Part shown: one piece after another, positions 15,637-26,156 of the stretch
Layout: each line of letters opens with the position of its first letter
How positions within the stretch are numbered: the stretch's first letter is position 1
Origin: Bacteroidales bacterium
GTDB taxonomy: Bacteria > Bacteroidota > Bacteroidia > Bacteroidales > UBA3663
Direction of reading: 5' to 3'
NCBI GenBank assembly: GCA_045639585.1
Contig: JAZUDJ010000088.1
Span: forward strand, 562 to 64,561
Length of the DNA: 64,000 nt
Position numbers and translations under genes: made by a program
The notes under the pieces: generated by a model
Databases searched by the model: none
What the model was told of the DNA's origin: nothing
What the model saw: only the letters and a program-made list of their open reading frames with translations

Positions 15637-15671
15637 GAACTCCTCACTCCTAGTTCCTCACTCTTCATTAA
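15637..15671 (-). repeat. heptamer tandem array, 5 units, filling an intergenic gap
   Basis: Plus strand GAACTCC TCACTCC TAGTTCC TCACTCT TCATTAA. The reverse complement of 15638-15667 matches 21994-22023 at 28/30. Confidence 0.85.
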
Positions 15672-18837: not shown

Positions 18838-19797
18838 TCACTTATCTTCCAATTGTTTTGATATAAAACTATAAACACTAAATGGGAGTATAGTATAAAT
18901 CATTCGCATCACACGGAGAGGAAAAGATGAATATGCTTTCCGTTTAGGAGCATTCTTCCATTCCGTTTTATTATGATACTCTTCATAAATGTAAAGAAGT
19001 GGGTGTTTTGAACTTGATGTCCATGGCCGATCAAACAATCCTGGTGTAAAATGAATTATCTTTGGGTTATTTTTTGCTTGCTCAAACTCTACTTCACTAT
19101 AAAACGGAACAACATTTTTTGAAGCATACTTATATGGATGCGAATAGAAATTAGATGTAGTATTGTATTGTGGATGAAGCATCAATTTCCGTCCTTTGCA
19201 TACACCATTTATTATGCCTTGATCATGATGATATACCACGCCATTGTATTTGTTCATAAATTCAGTTATTTTAGATTCGAGGTCATCCTCACGCCAAGCT
19301 CTCAAATTGATTAACAATACTCCAGAATTGATATATAATTCCGATTCGGATAAACCAACCATTCGCTTCATTTTACTTCCAGGCCAAATATCCGAAACAC
19401 CTGCTACATAATACCCCTGCAAATCTATCTCCCATAAAGAAGAAATATCTCCATTAAATACCACATCGGTATCTACATATAATACTCTGTCAATTTCCCT
19501 CGGCAAAAGATTTTGAACTAATAATCGAGAATATGCAGCTATTGATATTGTTGTCGGCAGGTTTGTATTGAGTTTCTCTCTGGTGTTTGAAATATCATAA
19601 ACCAAAAGCTCTCCTCGATCCTGTGGTACATGTTTCCTTAAGACGGCTATTGTCGATTCTTGGATATTATTTGAAAATAAATGAACACAGATATTATGAT
19701 TCTTATTCGTTTCAAACAAAGAAACTATTACTACAGCTACAAACTCTGCGTAATTTTCATCTGATGATAAAACAATATGAAGAGAATTCTGCATCAT
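18838..19797 (-). CDS. glycosyltransferase family 8 (RfaJ/LgtC-like)
   Basis: LHIVLSSDENYA and LYVDTDVVF (DXD). Confidence 0.85.
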   Translation of the reverse strand: MMQNSLHIVLSSDENYAEFVAVVIVSLFETNKNHNICVHLFSNNIQESTIAVLRKHVPQDRGELLVYDISNTREKLNTNLPTTISIAAYSRLLVQNLLPREIDRVLYVDTDVVFNGDISSLWEIDLQGYYVAGVSDIWPGSKMKRMVGLSESELYINSGVLLINLRAWREDDLESKITEFMNKYNGVVYHHDQGIINGVCKGRKLMLHPQYNTTSNFYSHPYKYASKNVVPFYSEVEFEQAKNNPKIIHFTPGLFDRPWTSSSKHPLLYIYEEYHNKTEWKNAPKRKAYSSFPLRVMRMIYTILPFSVYSFISKQLEDK

Positions 19798-20789
19798 CTT
19801 TTATTTAGGCGATTACGTTTTGTAACTAGATAAAAATACAACAATAGGCCCAAAGGTGCTGCCAGTAGAACAAGAGTTTTACTATTTGCATTAGTTAGCC
19901 AGCTTCCATCTCTTGCAATGAAACTTTCACAAACATAATGAATGGCCGAACGAAACTTATGCTTGAATGAAAAATGGCAAAGTTCCATTTCTTGCAATCT
20001 CATCTTTGCAAAGCTCCGAGGACTATTGAAATACTGATTAATAATTCCGGCAGACATTGAATCAGTGCCTATTTGATACTCCACCCAGCACAAATTTTCA
20101 TTCAAAATTAGCACAGGATATTTATCTCCGACTTTAACTGCAAGATACTGTGGATTAAAATTTTTTTCTCCAGAGAAACCTAATAAAGGGGCAACTTCTT
20201 TCATTAAATCCGTTCTAAAAACTAATTTTGAATCTCCTCTATGAATATTTTTTTCATCCATTTCTATAAAGTTGCCCTCATATAAATCTGTCGGCATATA
20301 GCCTCCAATAGGAGATTTCTTACAAAGATCAAAATCAAGTCCTAAGATTCCGCAATACTTTTTCTTCTCCTCTTCTCTCACCCCACTCCACTTCTTCACA
20401 ATCTTCTCCACCGCATCATCCGGCATATAGTCATCCGAATCAATGCAAACACAGAGATCTGTCTGAATGGTCTGATATGCCACATTATAACCCGTATAAA
20501 GCCCTCCATTGGGCTTGTACACATACTCAATGCGAACATTAGGAGCTTGAATCATAAAATGATTATCATCCTCGCCACCTTTAACTCGTCCCATCCAGTC
20601 AAACCTCTGACCTGAAGAAACAATTTTCTCTCCTAGAGCAGTGATCCACTCGCGCGTTCCATCCGAACTCCCATCATCTATGACGAGCCAATCAAAGTCC
20701 GTGCACGTCTGGCGACATAAAGACTCGTATGTGCGTGGCAACGTATGCTTGCGGTTATAAGTTGGAGTAAATACAGTTAGAGTTTTCAT
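19794..20789 (-). CDS. glycosyltransferase family 2
   Basis: LTVFTPTYNRKHTL, VIDDGSSDGT and CIDSDDYM. The compositional break near 20340 falls inside this gene. Confidence 0.85.
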   Translation of the reverse strand: MKTLTVFTPTYNRKHTLPRTYESLCRQTCTDFDWLVIDDGSSDGTREWITALGEKIVSSGQRFDWMGRVKGGEDDNHFMIQAPNVRIEYVYKPNGGLYTGYNVAYQTIQTDLCVCIDSDDYMPDDAVEKIVKKWSGVREEEKKKYCGILGLDFDLCKKSPIGGYMPTDLYEGNFIEMDEKNIHRGDSKLVFRTDLMKEVAPLLGFSGEKNFNPQYLAVKVGDKYPVLILNENLCWVEYQIGTDSMSAGIINQYFNSPRSFAKMRLQEMELCHFSFKHKFRSAIHYVCESFIARDGSWLTNANSKTLVLLAAPLGLLLYFYLVTKRNRLNKR

Positions 20790-20813
20790 GTTTTGCGTAA
20801 ATTTCTGGATATG

Positions 20814-21053
20814 CTAAAGAAAATTGGACAAAGATACTTGGGCAATCATCGTCCTACAACCCACATTCCACCTAGTATCTTGCCAACAATCCATACAAAC
20901 AGGCTTGTAACAAAGCCCGCAGCGGTAATGTATGATGATCCGCTCAGGAACCAAGCAGGCCCCCCCCATACCCGGACGCTGGGAGTGCATAAATACAATC
21001 ATCACACAGGCGATGATGCGAAGGAGATCAAGATAGAGGATTCGCTGGTTCAT
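20814..21053 (-). pseudogene. 5' remnant of an acyltransferase-3 family gene, frameshifted at a G8 tract and truncated
   Basis: MNQRILYLDLLRIIACVMIVFMHS is a typical family N-terminus. After the G8 run (C8 on plus, 20960-20967) the frame becomes Cys-rich nonsense. With G7 it would read PAWFLSGSSYITAAGFVTSLFVWIVGKILGGMWVVGR before stopping. Only about 80 codons remain of an expected ~330 or more. Confidence 0.6.
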
Positions 21054-21834
21054 GATTGTTCCATCCGGTTTTGAAATTCTCCGTTGCATTCTTTTTATCT
21101 GCTATTTCCTTCTCCATTCGCATGATGGCTGTGCGGAAAAAGAATTCTATGAGAGGCTGCGCATCATTGCGGAAAACTTTCATACAGGAAAGATAATCCT
21201 CTCGCTGCTCCTGCGTAACGATGAGAATGGGGAGATTGTATCGAAGGAGAATCTTATTACAAAGCAGTCGACCCAACCGACCATTACCATCACGGAACGG
21301 ATGAAGCCACTCAAAGTGACCATGGAAGATTGCTGCTGCCTCCATGGGATGCCATCTGCCACCAGCCAGCGCCTGCTCTACCTGAGTCAGGAGCTGTGGC
21401 ACTCTGGCTATAAGTACCTCATGATCGCCGAAGATGGTATCTCCCGCACACATATCATGATCGGTGTATTCACCAGGCAAGGCTCCAGCATGGCGGTATG
21501 CGATGGTGTGCTCGGTGAGCAGGAAATGCAGGTGCTTGATATAGTCTTCGGTCAATGGAACCTCAACGGTTCGTACCATCTCCTCGTATGCACGGAAATG
21601 GTCAAGCATCTCAAAGGCTTCAACCAAAGGTTTACCCTGGGGGATCATTCCAAGGCCTCTCTCTTTCAGCGTGCGTGTCTCATCTACAGTAAAGGAATTA
21701 CCTTCTATAGCACAGCTATGAGCAGAGAACAGAATCTCGTTATAATCCCTGAAGTCTTCGTATGAGAATCTGTCAGATATATACTCGCGATACTCTTGAG
21801 ATAAGGTATCAAATCTTTGGATGAGTTGTTCCAT
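21028..21834 (-). CDS. Fic-family protein (AMPylase-type active site, auto-inhibitory motif present)
   Basis: HPFRDGNGRLGRLL matches HxFx(D/E)GNGRxxR. An N-terminal SCAIEGN matches the (S/T)xxxE(G/N) inhibitory helix. ATG at 21834; the longer ORF to 22098 overlaps the VirE-like gene. Confidence 0.85.
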   Translation of the reverse strand: MEQLIQRFDTLSQEYREYISDRFSYEDFRDYNEILFSAHSCAIEGNSFTVDETRTLKERGLGMIPQGKPLVEAFEMLDHFRAYEEMVRTVEVPLTEDYIKHLHFLLTEHTIAYRHAGALPGEYTDHDMCAGDTIFGDHEVLIARVPQLLTQVEQALAGGRWHPMEAAAIFHGHFEWLHPFRDGNGRLGRLLCNKILLRYNLPILIVTQEQREDYLSCMKVFRNDAQPLIEFFFRTAIMRMEKEIADKKNATENFKTGWNNHEPANPLS

Positions 21835-21849
21835 TTTGAAAATATTCAG

Positions 21850-21986
21850 GTTCCACGGGGTGGAAGGGTGTGTCACTTTTCGAACATTTCGTTCCACCCA
21901 CCAATAATTCCCGACACCTTGCCTACCCCCTCGGGAATTATTTCTTTTCCGCAGAAAGTTTATGAATCCGATACACCCTTCCACCC
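21850..21986. other. highly structured 187-nt spacer between the VirE-like and Fic genes (nested inverted repeats)
   Basis: Outer IR GGGTGGAAGGGTGT (21858-21871) / ACACCCTTCCACCC (21973-21986). Inner 12-bp stem AATAATTCCCGA (21903-21914) / TCGGGAATTATT (21931-21942) with a 16-nt loop. Small hairpin TTCCAC-GGG-GTGGAA (21851-21865). Confidence 0.6.
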
Positions 21987-21996
21987 TTTTTTGTGA

Positions 21997-22024
21997 AGAG
22001 TGAGGAATTAGGAGTGAGCAGTTA
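21997..22024 (+). repeat. heptamer tandem array, 4 units, at the 3' end of the VirE-like gene (antisense to it)
   Basis: AGAGTGA GGAATTA GGAGTGA GCAGTTA. The last TTA is the stop codon (reverse complement TAA) of 22022-24280. Confidence 0.85.
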
Positions 22025-24280
22025 TTCGACGCGAACCAAATATCTTTTGATACCATGAAGAATGCGGCATTCAAAACCCTGACGGCCAAGCGCAGCACCT
22101 AAGGCTCTGACATTCAGCTTTGCCGACGGATTGTAGTAATTGATTCGCGCTGCAATCTCCGCCGCAGTCATCCACTTGCTGTCGCTCAGCGGTTGGCCAT
22201 CCTCTCCAAGATTAGGTTGGTGTACATAGACACTGCACAGTTCCACCTCAACGCTCTGCGACACATACTGCTCATTGTGCTTGTCGAGCTGTCGGATGTC
22301 CTGCTGGCTCATCACAAACATCCCAGCCTCATGCTGCGCCAGATAGAGAGCTTGCGCGTAAATATGTTCGTAGTCGGGACGACACTCGAAAGGATTGACG
22401 GTAAAGCGACGCACCGTAAATGTCAGCCAGCGGCGGTTGCCTGTCGGGTCGGTCAGGAAGTCGGCGCGATTGCCCGTAGCGCAGAACGTAGCGATACGCG
22501 GCATGGTACGTGGCGACTTGTCGTATGGCAAACGTTCGCGGATCACATCGAGCGTGACGAGAGACTTGAGTTGATTGACCTCCACCTCGCTCATCGCATC
22601 GATCTCCTCCAGGTTAATCAATCCGCACTCGGCCAGCTGGATGCGGTCGTCCTTGTCGAGGTTGCGGAAGCGCATCTGCTCCTTATAATAAGCGCGAAGC
22701 TCCGGTGGCATCAGCATACGCATCCACGAGGACTTGCCTATGCCCTGCGCACCGATGAAAGTCAGGATTGTGCCATGGGTGCTCGACATGTGAATCCAGC
22801 CGTGCACCATCGCCACCATCCAGCGCTTGAAGAAGTCGTCGAGCAAGGCGCGCGTCTCCTCGCCACCCTCCACCTCCACCGTCTGGATCAGCTCGTGAAG
22901 GTAGTCCTTATCACCAGGCTTCCACAATCCTTGCAACGGCTGCAGATACGCTATAATAGGATTGTAGGGCAATGAGCAGGTGTCACTCTGAAGGACATTA
23001 TACACGTCGGTCGATGTGGTGGTCAATGCAGTTTCCTCAAAGAACAGGCGCATCAAGGTGGCGACATCCGAGTCGTGCAACTCGTAATAGTGTGGAATTA
23101 GGAGTGTGGAGTGAGGAGTTTTTCCACTCTCGCACAAAGATCCGACCAAAGCCAATGACGACAGGTTACGCTGAGCGTATTGAGCCATTTGCGAGCCTTC
23201 ATTCCACTCGACCTCCAGTCGGTGAGAGATCATATTCTTGCGATACGTTCCCTGACTCAGCAAAAACGCCTCGATGTCAGCCGACGTGGCGCGATGCACC
23301 TTCTTCTCGCTGTTTTTCTGCTGGTTAGGCAATCGAAGTGTACCGAACTCTGCCTGCTTCGACTCGTAAATGCTCTTCACCACGCTCGTGATACCACGCT
23401 CTCCGTCACCATAATAGAAGTAGCGCTCCTTAGCCTCAGCCAGCGCCTCTTCCTGCTCGATGCCATAGCGATTGACCTCATAAATGACGGTGCTAAGGAA
23501 CTTGTTCAACGTGCCATGCTTCGCCTCAAATCCTTGCGTCTTGGCAAAGGCCTCAGCGGCATCAAAGGCTCTGGACAGCTGCGTCTTGACAGGTCGTCCC
23601 ACCGGATTGCCCGTCGCCATATGGGCCTTGCTCTGCTCAAAGTCGAGCAAAGCCTGGCTTAAGATAACGGTATAGGGCTGATAGTTATCCTTAAAATACT
23701 TAGCCTCAGGATCGTATGCCATAGCACTCGGTCGCGCTGCATCCTTACACTGCGTATCGACACGGAGATCCTTCAGCGTCGGAGCATTCGAGAACCACTC
23801 CTCAAACTGGCGGCGCACATCCTCCCAGATGGCATTCCACAGCAGGCGTGAGCGCTGACTCTTCTTCGGATCACGGAAGTCGAGCTCCGCCAAGTCCATC
23901 GGCTGCATATCGTGATAGCACACCTGATAGGCCACGATGACGTGCAGGCCCTTGCCGCTCAACGACCGGTGATAGCCAACGACATGCATCAGCATACCGA
24001 GGTAAGCGACCATGTATTCCATCTGCTTCTCATCCAGATGGTCATAGTCGAAGTAAAGCAATCCAGTGAGCTGCTTGATATTCTCCGTCTTCCTGCCACC
24101 CTCCATGATGGCCGACGGTACGAACACCGGCACGCGCTGCTTTTGCCCCACTCCCTGACGGTGCATCTCTGTCTGCATCCGCAAGTCCTGATCCGTCTTT
24201 ATTTTCGTAAAGACGTCGCCCAGCGACACTATCTGCGGGGGGGTAGACAGTAGATTATTGAAAGTTGAAACGGTTTCCAA
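22022..24280 (-). CDS. VirE-like P-loop NTPase with an N-terminal primase-like (VirE_N/BT4734-like) region
   Basis: Walker A FIGAQGIGKSSW. 752 aa with a large N-terminal domain. TTG start at 24280, 9 nt after the HTH gene stop. The family call comes from remembered architecture, not a search. Confidence 0.75.
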   Translation of the reverse strand: METVSTFNNLLSTPPQIVSLGDVFTKIKTDQDLRMQTEMHRQGVGQKQRVPVFVPSAIMEGGRKTENIKQLTGLLYFDYDHLDEKQMEYMVAYLGMLMHVVGYHRSLSGKGLHVIVAYQVCYHDMQPMDLAELDFRDPKKSQRSRLLWNAIWEDVRRQFEEWFSNAPTLKDLRVDTQCKDAARPSAMAYDPEAKYFKDNYQPYTVILSQALLDFEQSKAHMATGNPVGRPVKTQLSRAFDAAEAFAKTQGFEAKHGTLNKFLSTVIYEVNRYGIEQEEALAEAKERYFYYGDGERGITSVVKSIYESKQAEFGTLRLPNQQKNSEKKVHRATSADIEAFLLSQGTYRKNMISHRLEVEWNEGSQMAQYAQRNLSSLALVGSLCESGKTPHSTLLIPHYYELHDSDVATLMRLFFEETALTTTSTDVYNVLQSDTCSLPYNPIIAYLQPLQGLWKPGDKDYLHELIQTVEVEGGEETRALLDDFFKRWMVAMVHGWIHMSSTHGTILTFIGAQGIGKSSWMRMLMPPELRAYYKEQMRFRNLDKDDRIQLAECGLINLEEIDAMSEVEVNQLKSLVTLDVIRERLPYDKSPRTMPRIATFCATGNRADFLTDPTGNRRWLTFTVRRFTVNPFECRPDYEHIYAQALYLAQHEAGMFVMSQQDIRQLDKHNEQYVSQSVEVELCSVYVHQPNLGEDGQPLSDSKWMTAAEIAARINYYNPSAKLNVRALGAALGRQGFECRILHGIKRYLVRVE
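23094..23121 (+). repeat. heptamer tandem array, 4 units, inside the VirE-like ORF (antisense orientation)
   Basis: GGAATTA GGAGTGT GGAGTGA GGAGTTT. Read on the gene strand as KTPHSTLLIP. Confidence 0.85.
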
Positions 24281-24289
24281 ATTATGGAG

Positions 24290-24766
24290 TTATTTCGAAT
24301 TAAGACTACGGCGCTTCTTAATCTCCTCGCGCATCATGAGCCACAACTCAGGACCGGCATTGCTCTTCTCCCCTCGTACAGTCAAACCGAGTTTGCGCTG
24401 GAATAATCGCCACAAGGTGGAGTCATTCGCATAACCGAAAACCTTGGCGACGTCATCGAGCTTAGCATCCGGATGCACCCCGATATACTCCTCCACCTGA
24501 TGGATACGGTATTGCTGAATCACATCGATCAACCGCATATCCATTTCGAGCTGAATAGCATAAGCCAACTTGCGAGCATCGACAGCGAGATACTCTGCCA
24601 GTTCCTTGCTCTCAATGCACTTCGTATCATAAAGAGCTTCCGCCACCGCATTGACGAGGCGCGACGCTGTGTATGTCTCCGGCTGACCAGGGATATAATC
24701 GAAAACTTGCTGTAAAGTGACAGCAGGAAGATAAGGTTTAGTTTCTTTCATAATAGATTTTGACAT
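24290..24766 (-). CDS. AraC-type helix-turn-helix DNA-binding protein (single HTH_18-like domain)
   Basis: ELAEYLAVDARKLAYAIQ... and LDDVAKVFGYANDSTLWRLFQRKLGLT. ATG at 24766 (MSKSIMKETKPY); 24751 is an alternative. The track ORF to 24934 starts at TTG and only translates the upstream repeats. Confidence 0.7.
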   Translation of the reverse strand: MSKSIMKETKPYLPAVTLQQVFDYIPGQPETYTASRLVNAVAEALYDTKCIESKELAEYLAVDARKLAYAIQLEMDMRLIDVIQQYRIHQVEEYIGVHPDAKLDDVAKVFGYANDSTLWRLFQRKLGLTVRGEKSNAGPELWLMMREEIKKRRSLNSK

Positions 24767-24949
24767 TAGGGACGTGATGTTAGAATAATTGTCTTGTGAG
24801 TCTAACACTGCGGACGTAGTGTTGGTATCTGAGAGCTGCGAGTCTAACACTACGTCCCTAGTGTTAAGTCTCACGGCCTGCGAATCTAACACTACGTCCG
24901 CAGTGTTAGATCCATTCGTGCAAGATATTAACAACGCGAACGTAGTGTT
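24762..24949. repeat. five palindromic sites with exact 42-bp phasing upstream of the HTH gene
   Basis: Cores: 24762-24781 GACATTAGGGACGTGATGTT (degenerate), 24804-24823 AACACTGCGGACGTAGTGTT, 24846-24865 AACACTACGTCCCTAGTGTT, 24888-24907 AACACTACGTCCGCAGTGTT, 24930-24949 AACAACGCGAACGTAGTGTT. Centres fall at 24771.5, 24813.5, 24855.5, 24897.5 and 24939.5. Confidence 0.85.
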
Positions 24950-25035
24950 AACACATAAGCTTCGCTAAGGTCTCCCACGAATCTTTTCGCGACAAACCCC
25001 GCTCAGTTATTGTATAAATAATATATTGCACGCGA

Positions 25036-25043
25036 CAAAGATA
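25036..25043 (-). promoter_or_regulatory. candidate -7 box for the HTH-VirE-Fic unit
   Basis: The minus strand reads TATCTTTG, matching TAnnTTTG. No convincing -33 TTTG. It sits about 270 nt upstream of ATG 24766, so the five palindromes would be in the leader. Confidence 0.3.
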
Positions 25044-25083
25044 ATAATAATTATAATACGTTGGTAAAAAAGGGATAAAAAAA

Positions 25084-25119
25084 GTGAGATTGACACGGGA
25101 AAAGTCGTGTCAACCTCAC
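25084..25119. terminator. bidirectional intrinsic terminator downstream of the last gene of the upstream glycan sub-cluster
   Basis: GTGAGATTGACACG - GGAAAAGT - CGTGTCAACCTCAC (14-bp stem, 1 mismatch). Flanked by A7 on the left and TTTT on the right. Confidence 0.7.
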
Positions 25120-25169
25120 TTTTAATAACGATTTATTATTATTTCGTATATCAAAATATAGAATTCTTC

Positions 25170-26156
25170 CTATCTGCAAGGGCTTAATGAAGCAATCTTG
25201 ATTGCTATTTTCTGATAAAGATTAGGAAAAAAACTAATAATGATGAGACTCATTTTCTTAAAGAGAGGGAAAGATGAAATAAGCAGATCTCTCCTGTATG
25301 AACTAAGGTATGCTTTTGAGTGTTCCTTTGCATAACTATAAAGCTCTGTATTTCGAGACTCACACAAGATATTCAAAATTGTTTTAATGCACTTCTGTAA
25401 ACAGACATTACTCAGCTCAGATCGTTCTGGCTTCAAGATTTTATAACACCTATCATATACATCGATTTGATCTATATACTTTTTTGTAATACCTTGATGA
25501 ATAATCGATCCAGTACGTTGCACATAATAATAGAGTGGAGCATTCACCAGGATTGCCAGATTCATACGCAATGATACTTCTGTATTAAAAATCAAATCTT
25601 CAGAAATTGGACACTCTGCGAATTTAATGGGTTGGATAAAATTCCTTCGATACAACTTATTCCATGCTACAATATAAAAAACGCCATTATCCTTCCATGT
25701 TCCAAACATTCGACTGACCATCTGATCCTTTGAAATCTCTTGTTTAGAGACATCTGAATATTGGAAATGCTGTTGAGTCAAAGTATCCCCATCATGAAAA
25801 GTGGAAAACAAACAGAATGAGAAATTGGCACTAGGATTCTCGGCTAATGCACGATAAAGAAACTCGTACATCAGTGGATGAATGAAGTCATCACCATCAA
25901 CGAATGCAATGTATTCTCCTGTCGCTTGTTCCAGCCCAAAATTCCTTGCTGCAGACAATCCTCCATTCTGTGTATGAAAGGCCTTACATCGAGCATCTAC
26001 AAGGGCAAAATTATCACATATCTGACCACAATCATCAGTTGAGCCATCATCTACTAAGATAATCTCCAGATCCTTAAACGTTGAATCCAAAATACTTTGA
26101 ATACAATCATGCAGATAACTAGACACATTATAAACTGGTACAATGACGCTTATCAT
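25170..26156 (-). CDS. glycosyltransferase family 2
   Basis: MISVIVPVYNVSSYL, LVDDGSTDDC and FVDGDDF. Paralogue of 32480-33475. Confidence 0.85.
   Translation of the reverse strand: MISVIVPVYNVSSYLHDCIQSILDSTFKDLEIILVDDGSTDDCGQICDNFALVDARCKAFHTQNGGLSAARNFGLEQATGEYIAFVDGDDFIHPLMYEFLYRALAENPSANFSFCLFSTFHDGDTLTQQHFQYSDVSKQEISKDQMVSRMFGTWKDNGVFYIVAWNKLYRRNFIQPIKFAECPISEDLIFNTEVSLRMNLAILVNAPLYYYVQRTGSIIHQGITKKYIDQIDVYDRCYKILKPERSELSNVCLQKCIKTILNILCESRNTELYSYAKEHSKAYLSSYRRDLLISSFPLFKKMSLIIISFFPNLYQKIAIKIASLSPCR

Follow-up and report, generated by a model that had tools for sequence, protein, structure and literature searches.

At positions 21028-24766 of a 64,000-nt stretch of contig JAZUDJ010000088.1 (Bacteroidales bacterium, assembly GCA_045639585.1; the whole stretch is referred to as the window), a small AraC-type helix-turn-helix (HTH) gene, a gene for a VirE-like primase-helicase and a Fic gene lie within a long run of polysaccharide genes. 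A sequence-only reading of this DNA had suggested that the three genes may form a discrete functional unit. The comparison with relatives did not bear this out: the complete trio was found in none of the other loci that were read, and each of the genes was found without the others. On balance, and with moderate confidence, we read the stretch as an accessory island of mosaic make-up, placed where an internal operon begins within one long glycan locus, and not as a three-gene machine. We established the anatomy of this island, the distribution of its genes, the selection acting on them and their family matches; judging from their sequences, the island genes may have a defence or addiction activity.

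The elements of the island and its borders are the following (positions in the window; G-, C- and L-numbers in the text are our handles for genomes, contigs and loci):

25065..25138, minus strand: terminator, a hairpin followed by T7, which closes the upstream glycan sub-cluster
25036..25043, minus strand: candidate Bacteroidetes -7 box TATCTTTG, between terminator and array
24761..24949, no strand assigned: palindrome array, five 21-nt copies of (T)AACACT-N8-AGTGTT(A) in exact 42-bp phase
24290..24766, minus strand: HTH gene, stand-alone AraC-type protein of 158 aa with an HTH_18 domain (ATG at 24766, stop at 24290)
22022..24280, minus strand: VirE-like gene, 752 aa, a BT4734-type archaeo-eukaryotic primase-polymerase (AEP) fused to a VapE/DUF5906 P-loop helicase
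21857..22021, minus strand: conserved non-coding element of ~165 nt with a heptamer run, an outer inverted repeat and an inner hairpin
21028..21834, minus strand: Fic gene, class-II AMP-transferase of 268 aa with the motif HPFRDGNGRLGR and the inhibitory motif SCAIEG
20790..21089, minus strand: N-terminal remnant of an acyltransferase-3 gene (Pfam match 21089-20814) with a deletion scar
20829..20836, minus strand: another candidate -7 box TATCTTTG, 40 nt ahead of the GT2 start codon; weak, with 58 occurrences of the motif in the window
19794..20789, minus strand: GT2 gene, the first intact downstream glycan gene, syntenic with the GT2 gene that follows the acyltransferase in L039 and L045

Most of this anatomy had been described before. 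The terminator at the end of the upstream sub-cluster, the phased palindromes, the AraC-type HTH, the VirE-like P-loop protein with its TTG start 9 nt past the HTH stop, the structured 187-nt spacer, the Fic protein with intact active site and inhibitory helix motif and the decayed acyltransferase behind it were all recovered in our analysis. The same holds for the single-strand glycan setting, which was confirmed with Pfam for 26 flanking genes, though not gene by gene in the middle of the upstream block. The source contig, C88 (76.9 kb), belongs to G000, a 2.83-Mb Bacteroidales metagenome-assembled genome (MAG) that is 87% complete and has a GC content of 48.9%. The glycan locus runs on the minus strand from 52684 down to 6214; by Pfam its head encodes Wza, Wzc and an ABC transporter, its body many glycosyltransferases (GTs) and an EpsG-type polymerase, and its tail Bac_transf, GT4 and a DegT aminotransferase. 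The GC content of 21028-25133 is 47-55%, near the genome average, and that of the flanking glycan genes is 34-41%.

The absence of a recombinase, also part of the earlier description, was upheld: no tyrosine recombinase (PF00589) was matched anywhere on contig C88, and the single bracketing repeat turned out to be a dispersed heptamer microsatellite. An att-like inverted repeat (28/30, at 15638 / 21994) was rejected as an element boundary because it consists of this microsatellite, which is present at ~50 loci. The integrase and the attachment-site repeats that would identify an integrative mobilizable element or a phage satellite were not found here.

Separate distribution of the three genes

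The genus was sampled by 39 species representatives, and the genomic context was read for eight VirE-clade loci (51-94% identity), eight Fic loci and 17 HTH loci. In L008 (VirE 93%) three GT2 genes are followed by the HTH, a phosphoribosyltransferase (PRTase)-like gene, VirE, EpsG, GT2 and LicD. In L005 (90%) the order is pyruvyl transferase, HTH, PRTase, VirE, an intact acyltransferase and GTs. The VirE gene of L007 (86%) is frameshifted and has the array and the HTH downstream of it, and those of L006/L013 and L010 (63-64%) and L011 (51%) are surrounded by glycan genes and lack an HTH. A link to an integrase was seen for a single copy of the clade: at L009:7062-12247, beside a thiamine operon, VirE (87%) adjoins both a tyrosine integrase gene and one with a SocA/Panacea domain. 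Among the relatives read, no case of Fic next to VirE was found outside the species of the window itself. A partial repeat of the trio (VirE-Fic) was seen only in L045, a contig of a near-identical strain that begins inside VirE.

The position at which the homology ends is informative. Between the window and L008, blastn gave homology in two segments, 27170-24305 and 24281-21857, and its end at 21857 coincides exactly with the outer inverted repeat of the spacer. This assigns the structured spacer to the VirE block and leaves Fic out of it. The gene to which Fic is linked is the downstream acyltransferase, not VirE. In L045 (Fic 99%) the VirE C-terminus is followed by Fic, two intact acyltransferases and GT2, and L039 and L040 (Fic 87%) have the order HTH, PRTase, Fic, acyltransferase and GT2, with no VirE. 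In the alignment with L039, the shared frame consists of terminator, array, HTH, either PRTase or VirE plus spacer, Fic, acyltransferase and GT2. More distant Fic homologues (70-74%; L041, L046 and L047) are located in other glycan loci next to AAA_15/DUF4276, AbiE, PRTase, ATPase_2 or AAA-ATPase/PDDEXK_9 genes. The Fic gene of L048 (65%) is found in a polysaccharide utilization locus (PUL) and those of L042-L044 (57%) beside ileS.

The slot behind the HTH is occupied in the relatives by a ShosT-like PRTase, HipA, ATPase_2 or AAA-ATPase/PDDEXK_9. The PRTase matches ShosT (6e-7), a retron PRTase and PsyrT. The 268-aa PRTase-like gene after the HTH (L008:8888-9727, L005:1255-2061, L039:7125-7931) is absent from the window, where its place would be at 24281-24305. 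Two of the glycan loci with Fic hold further genes of this kind: AAA_15/AAA_21, DUF3226 and DUF4276 genes between wzm and wzt at L041:8001-11012, and a PRTase, an AbiE pair (DUF6922, AbiEii) and ATPase_2 among GT genes at L046:2268-8813.

The putative regulatory head and the 42-bp arrays

The DNA homology to L005 and L039 begins at the terminator. Since the candidate -7 box lies upstream of the array, the latter would fall in a transcribed leader. On C142, the same box precedes the array of the paralogous HTH gene, ~390 nt before the start of that gene. The leader that carries the array folds very stably (z = -7.2), and the orientation of the loop alternates between the palindrome copies. A scan of the window for the palindrome (<=2 mismatches) gave five matches, four of which are array copies, versus 2.0 expected by chance. 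The array is conserved upstream of the HTH in L005, L007, L008, L015 and L039, and every HTH orthologue has one.

The HTH protein passes the HTH_18 profile marginally (E 5e-9; 36.7 bits versus a cut-off of 33.6). It has no ligand or dimerisation domain, resembles MarA/SoxS in size and shows a ratio of non-synonymous to synonymous substitutions (dN/dS) of 0.08-0.14. The family is lineage-specific. Species that bear arrays have 3-6 copies of it, and 19 of the 39 species have none. Some 9-11 of the 16 paralogous copies in the genus are preceded by a 42-bp-period array that starts ~120-250 nt before the start codon, and each of these paralogues has its own palindrome variant with the core (T)CAACA(C)...(G)TGTTG(A). 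The HTH gene of L130 has the same upstream arrangement. The genes upstream of the HTH copies are largely glycan genes. Downstream, both glycan genes (wzm, GT1, WecG, GT2, acyltransferase) and selfish or defence-type genes (Fic, HipA, ATPase_2, AAA-ATPase/PDDEXK_9, AAA_15/21, PRTase) are found. The view that array and HTH make up a recurrent unit at the internal operon heads of glycan loci is thus supported, and binding of the HTH to the palindromes in its own leader is the putative activity. G000 itself has two HTH paralogues: the one at C142:17262-17970 has its own 42-bp array with another palindrome (GACGYTGYGTACAGAACGTTGA) and precedes the gene of a 321-aa protein without annotation, and the one at C4:1703-2149 lacks an array.

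The array had been described before as a phased operator array; as an operator private to this locus it had to be rejected. The AACACT-N8-AGTGTT motif is present at 26 loci in the genome, 13 of which have two or more copies at 42- or 84-bp spacing, and many of the 26 lie between convergent genes. Moreover, a generic scan of the 2.83-Mb genome revealed at least 50 arrays of 42-bp period, which belong to several stem families and are likewise often found between convergent genes. The two array families that were counted across the genus are both limited to G000, G016, G017, G023 and G026. The stem families are unrelated to each other (AACACT..AGTGTT, GGACGTC..GACGTCC, GGAAGGGATC.., CATCTCCTCC..GTAC.., and others); examples within G000 are found at C14:2029-2216, C119:400-587, C34:77546-77827 and C8:4293-4463.

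The primase-helicase, its 3' element and Fic

The Pfam domains of the VirE-like protein are matched with E-values of 3e-20 (BT4734-like_N) and 2e-33 (VapE-like), and DUF5906 is matched as well. PF08800 scores 73.1 bits over residues 47-194 (cut-off 22.4) and PF05272 scores 116.1 bits. The catalytic residues are preserved. The primase motifs I (DxD/E), II (sxH or sxK) and III (hD/E), as defined in PMC5862659 and PMC11724360, are represented by YFDYDH (D78, D80 and H81 invariant), GKGLH (H conserved in seven of eight sequences) and CKD (D180 invariant). Walker A (G510-x-Q-G-x-G-K516-S517) and Walker B (E558-E-I-D561) are invariant too, and the invariance of primase and Walker residues extends down to 31% identity. 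The protein also matches PDB entry 7pds, a VapE-like protein; its C-terminal half is labelled DNA helicase or primase by PHROGs, and its N-terminus matches the PADLOC models of CRISPR- and DRT-associated PrimPols. The dN/dS of VirE amounts to 0.08-0.11, also in the comparison with a glycan-locus copy at a dS of ~2.6.

With values for dN/dS of 0.06-0.14 over the three genes, the earlier suggestion that they are decayed does not hold; together with the invariant primase and Walker motifs, these values indicate that all three are functional. Within the genus the VirE clade is found in five of the 39 species, and two copies are broken (frameshifted in G024, deleted in G016). In the order at large, PF08800 was found in 30 of 121 sampled genera. 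Among the neighbours of 16 order-wide VirE loci from different families, Phage_integrase (eight proteins), Arm-DNA-bind_5 (seven), HTH_17 (four) and restriction-modification (R-M) genes are present, and no glycosyltransferase family is found among the 25 most frequent neighbour families of these loci. Given these integrase, excisionase and R-M neighbours, the VirE family normally belongs to integrative elements. The earlier statement that VirE-like genes often occur beside Bacteroidales capsule loci is correct for this VirE clade, but such a setting was not seen in the order-wide sample of 16 loci; it is known from Bacteroides proper. IMG/VR contains only distant helicase-domain relatives of the clade (<=34% identity), and one VirE-clade locus was found in the JGI metagenomes.

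The heptamer microsatellite (CTCACTC/CTAATTC units) touches VirE twice. One run (21994-22023) sits just past the stop codon. The other (23089-23127) is in frame and encodes part of the linker between primase and helicase, the length of which is hypervariable among homologues.

The 187-nt spacer between VirE and Fic contains nested inverted repeats (arms 21858-21874 / 21970-21986). In an alignment of seven VirE loci, the inner hairpin AATTCCCG-N18-CGGGAATT (21903-21942), which has a G-rich loop, is nearly invariant, and this hairpin is a candidate cis site, either an origin or a processing signal. The conserved element is single-copy in the genome and accompanies VirE in every context, including the integrase-linked one. 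It has no Rfam match, and the scan of positions 20000-26000 against Rfam gave only sub-threshold noise from microRNA models, on the terminator. The possibility that the spacer forms a stable RNA was rejected, because its fold is not better than that of shuffled sequences (z -1.4) and covariation is weak.

The Fic protein is matched by PF02661 with an E-value of 4e-17 (63.2 bits, cut-off 24). Its HPFRDGNGRLGR conforms to the canonical HxFx(D/E)GNGRxxR, and SCAIEG, located N-terminal to the Fic core on the same chain, conforms to the class-II motif (S/T)xxxE(G/N), so that the protein is predicted to be auto-inhibited. Its best relatives in the PDB are the class-II FICD and a Fic protein of C. 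difficile, and its dN/dS is 0.06-0.11. The matching PADLOC profiles are PDC-S04 (2e-34) and SoFic (2e-24), of which the latter is covered only at positions 62-271 of 361. With the SoFic equivalog of NCBIfam (NF046030) the score is 30.7 bits, where 550 would be required; judged by full architecture and equivalog score, the protein is not a SoFic.

Downstream of Fic, the sister strain (L045:1532-3411) has kept two intact acyltransferase-3 genes where the window shows a 125-bp scar (20790-20915). Compared with L045, ~1.9 kb containing the two genes has been lost from the window in a recent deletion. The claim that the downstream glycan genes have no obvious promoter of their own needs some qualification: the weak -7 box ahead of GT2 (20836-20829) makes an independent promoter possible.

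Explanations for the island and related systems

The reading as a mosaic island can be worked out as follows. A regulatory head, consisting of terminator, candidate promoter, 42-bp hairpin array and small HTH, would be native to the glycan loci of the genus. The HTH would bind the palindromes in its own leader and thereby set the amount of transcription that continues into the genes that follow. The slot after the HTH would gather selfish or defence-type genes. In the window, its first occupant would be a primase-helicase of mobile-element origin, with its 3' hairpin element, that has lost the integrase and has been kept by selection; the second would be a class-II, auto-inhibited Fic from a family of defence candidates, closely abutting the downstream acyltransferase. 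As they are co-oriented and tightly packed, the island genes and the downstream glycan genes probably share a transcript, and the island genes may act as passengers of the toxin, abortive-infection or addiction type. The candidate roles that were proposed earlier all return in this reading, each in part. The regulatory role finds support in the recurrence of array and HTH at internal glycan operon heads. The defence role is in line with the matches of Fic to PDC-S04 and SoFic and of the neighbouring PRTase in relatives to ShosT. The derivation from a replicon agrees with the order-wide VirE neighbours (integrases, excisionases, R-M), and the supposed decay does not hold.

Several observations weigh against the island reading. 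The numbers of contexts that were read are small. The array family is found at 25 other loci that have no HTH gene, often between convergent genes; the array may be a repeat resembling repetitive extragenic palindromes and bacterial interspersed mosaic elements (REP/BIME), with no more than a preference for such gaps. The residence of the VirE clade in glycan loci has lasted over a very large divergence (dS > 2.5), and this hints at a selected role rather than that of a passenger. Finally, PDC-S04 itself has only candidate status, and the C-terminal domain of SoFic is missing from the Fic protein.

The sequence-only proposal, in which HTH, VirE and Fic are one dedicated unit, the array is its operator and primase-helicase and Fic jointly act as a switch or in defence, would explain the shared strand, the tight packing and the short distance between HTH and VirE. 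In addition, an HTH-Fic adjacency is found again in L039/L040, G018 and G021 show it too, there with Fic of a different family, and VirE-type primases are known from CRISPR- and RT-associated defence contexts (PMC11724360). Nevertheless, the genes occur separately, the conserved homology ends before Fic and the HTH is mostly followed by ordinary glycan genes or unrelated ATPases, which makes the proposal improbable. Somewhat less improbable, though still unlikely, is the view that VirE is decaying and without present function, a relic left after an integrative mobilizable element or a phage satellite had landed in the glycan locus and lost its integrase. The dominance of integrases and excisionases among the order-wide neighbours, the 87%-identical copy beside an integrase in L009, the patchy distribution with frameshifted (G024) and deleted (G016) copies and the contig without an integrase would all fit. 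However, the low dN/dS is maintained even at dS > 2.5, where all copies reside in glycan loci, the catalytic motifs are all invariant, and gene and 3' element are conserved together.

Two other explanations assign the enzymes a task within the glycan locus. Fic, and perhaps other inserted enzymes, might act on a glycan-assembly protein by post-translational modification and so tune polymer output. In favour of this, six of the eight Fic-clade contexts are inside glycan loci and co-oriented, their junctions to acyltransferase, hexapeptide-transferase or GT genes are short or overlapping, and purifying selection is strong. We nevertheless hold it to be about as doubtful as the dedicated unit, as the neighbouring glycan genes vary by locus, homologues of 57-65% identity are found in a PUL or beside ileS and the profiles that match best belong to Fic families of the defence type. 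Staphylococcal pathogenicity islands carry their origin adjacent to the initiator gene. By analogy, VirE and its 3' hairpin element might be an active replication module in situ, with local over-replication leading to amplification, recombination or transfer of glycan cassettes. The intact primase-helicase always comes with the conserved structured element immediately 3' of it, the glycan cassettes have been swapped on either side of a conserved island, and the clade is a long-term resident of glycan loci. We regard this as the least probable of the explanations, since the 3' element shows little covariation and is no more stable than shuffles, and ordinary homologous recombination can explain the exchange breakpoints.

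The implications reach beyond this locus. In gut Bacteroidales, surface glycans are the principal receptors for phages and the principal structures exposed to the immune system. If toxin or defence genes were indeed routinely wired into glycan operons behind a dedicated regulator, the choice of capsule and phage immunity would be genetically coupled. A conserved island would also provide a homology anchor for the swapping of glycan cassettes. In its strongest form, the array-binding HTH would head sub-operons with deliberately lodged effectors (Fic, ShosT-like PRTase, HipA, AbiE, domesticated primase-helicase), so that each glycan type is co-expressed with its own anti-phage or addiction genes, and HTH proteins of this family would also work on the dispersed 42-bp arrays throughout the genome, for instance as programmable roadblocks; we think it as unlikely as the relic. 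The arrays and their enrichment at one small HTH family do point to an undescribed system of repeats and DNA-binding protein in an uncultured genus. Literature searches for VirE or Fic within capsule loci returned nothing specific.

The individual proteins are ordinary members of known families. Unusual are the residence of a primase-helicase clade and several toxin-like genes within operons for polysaccharides, the placement of these genes after a lineage-specific HTH and the strict superfamily of 42-bp hairpin arrays. UpxY/UpxZ form the heads of Bacteroides capsule operons, and the regulatory head described here is similar in that a small regulatory gene with a long leader heads a run of glycan genes. 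However, the HTH is of the AraC type, an unrelated family that is not NusG-like, its position is internal and not at the 5' end of the locus, and there is no invertible promoter or recombinase. The co-oriented Fic, ShosT-like PRTase, HipA, AbiE and ATPase genes, scattered in a recombination-prone mosaic of exchangeable genes, are reminiscent of the cassette arrays of chromosomal integrons and of defence islands. In contrast to the toxin-antitoxin cassettes of integrons, the host array is a polysaccharide biosynthesis operon, attC-like sites and an integrase are lacking and no antitoxin partner was identified here.

VirE has the domain order of the VirEN proteins (BT4734-like AEP plus VirE/VapE helicase; classification of Iyer et al., as cited in PMC5862659 and PMC11724360), with PF08800, PF05272 and PF19263 all above their cut-offs. 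It differs by its location in a glycan operon without the integrase, excisionase and cargo R-M genes that are its usual neighbours in the order, and by the variable heptamer-repeat linker between the two domains. Fic shares the core with the canonical motif with SoFic and PDC-S04, but carries an intramolecular N-terminal inhibitory motif (class II) and is embedded in a glycan operon. With 268 aa versus 361 aa it is also shorter than SoFic, the proposed action of which is abortive infection based on AMPylation, and what it misses is the C-terminal domain reported to be necessary for toxicity (PMC12249575). Finally, the arrays correspond to REP/BIME sequences in being tandem short palindromes of alternating orientation that are intergenic, occur dozens of times per genome and comprise several families. 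No RAYT (Y1) transposase (PF01797) was matched in this genome, of which the MAG represents 87%. The arrays are further set apart from REP/BIME sequences by their strict 42-bp period and by their strong enrichment upstream of one small HTH_18 gene family.

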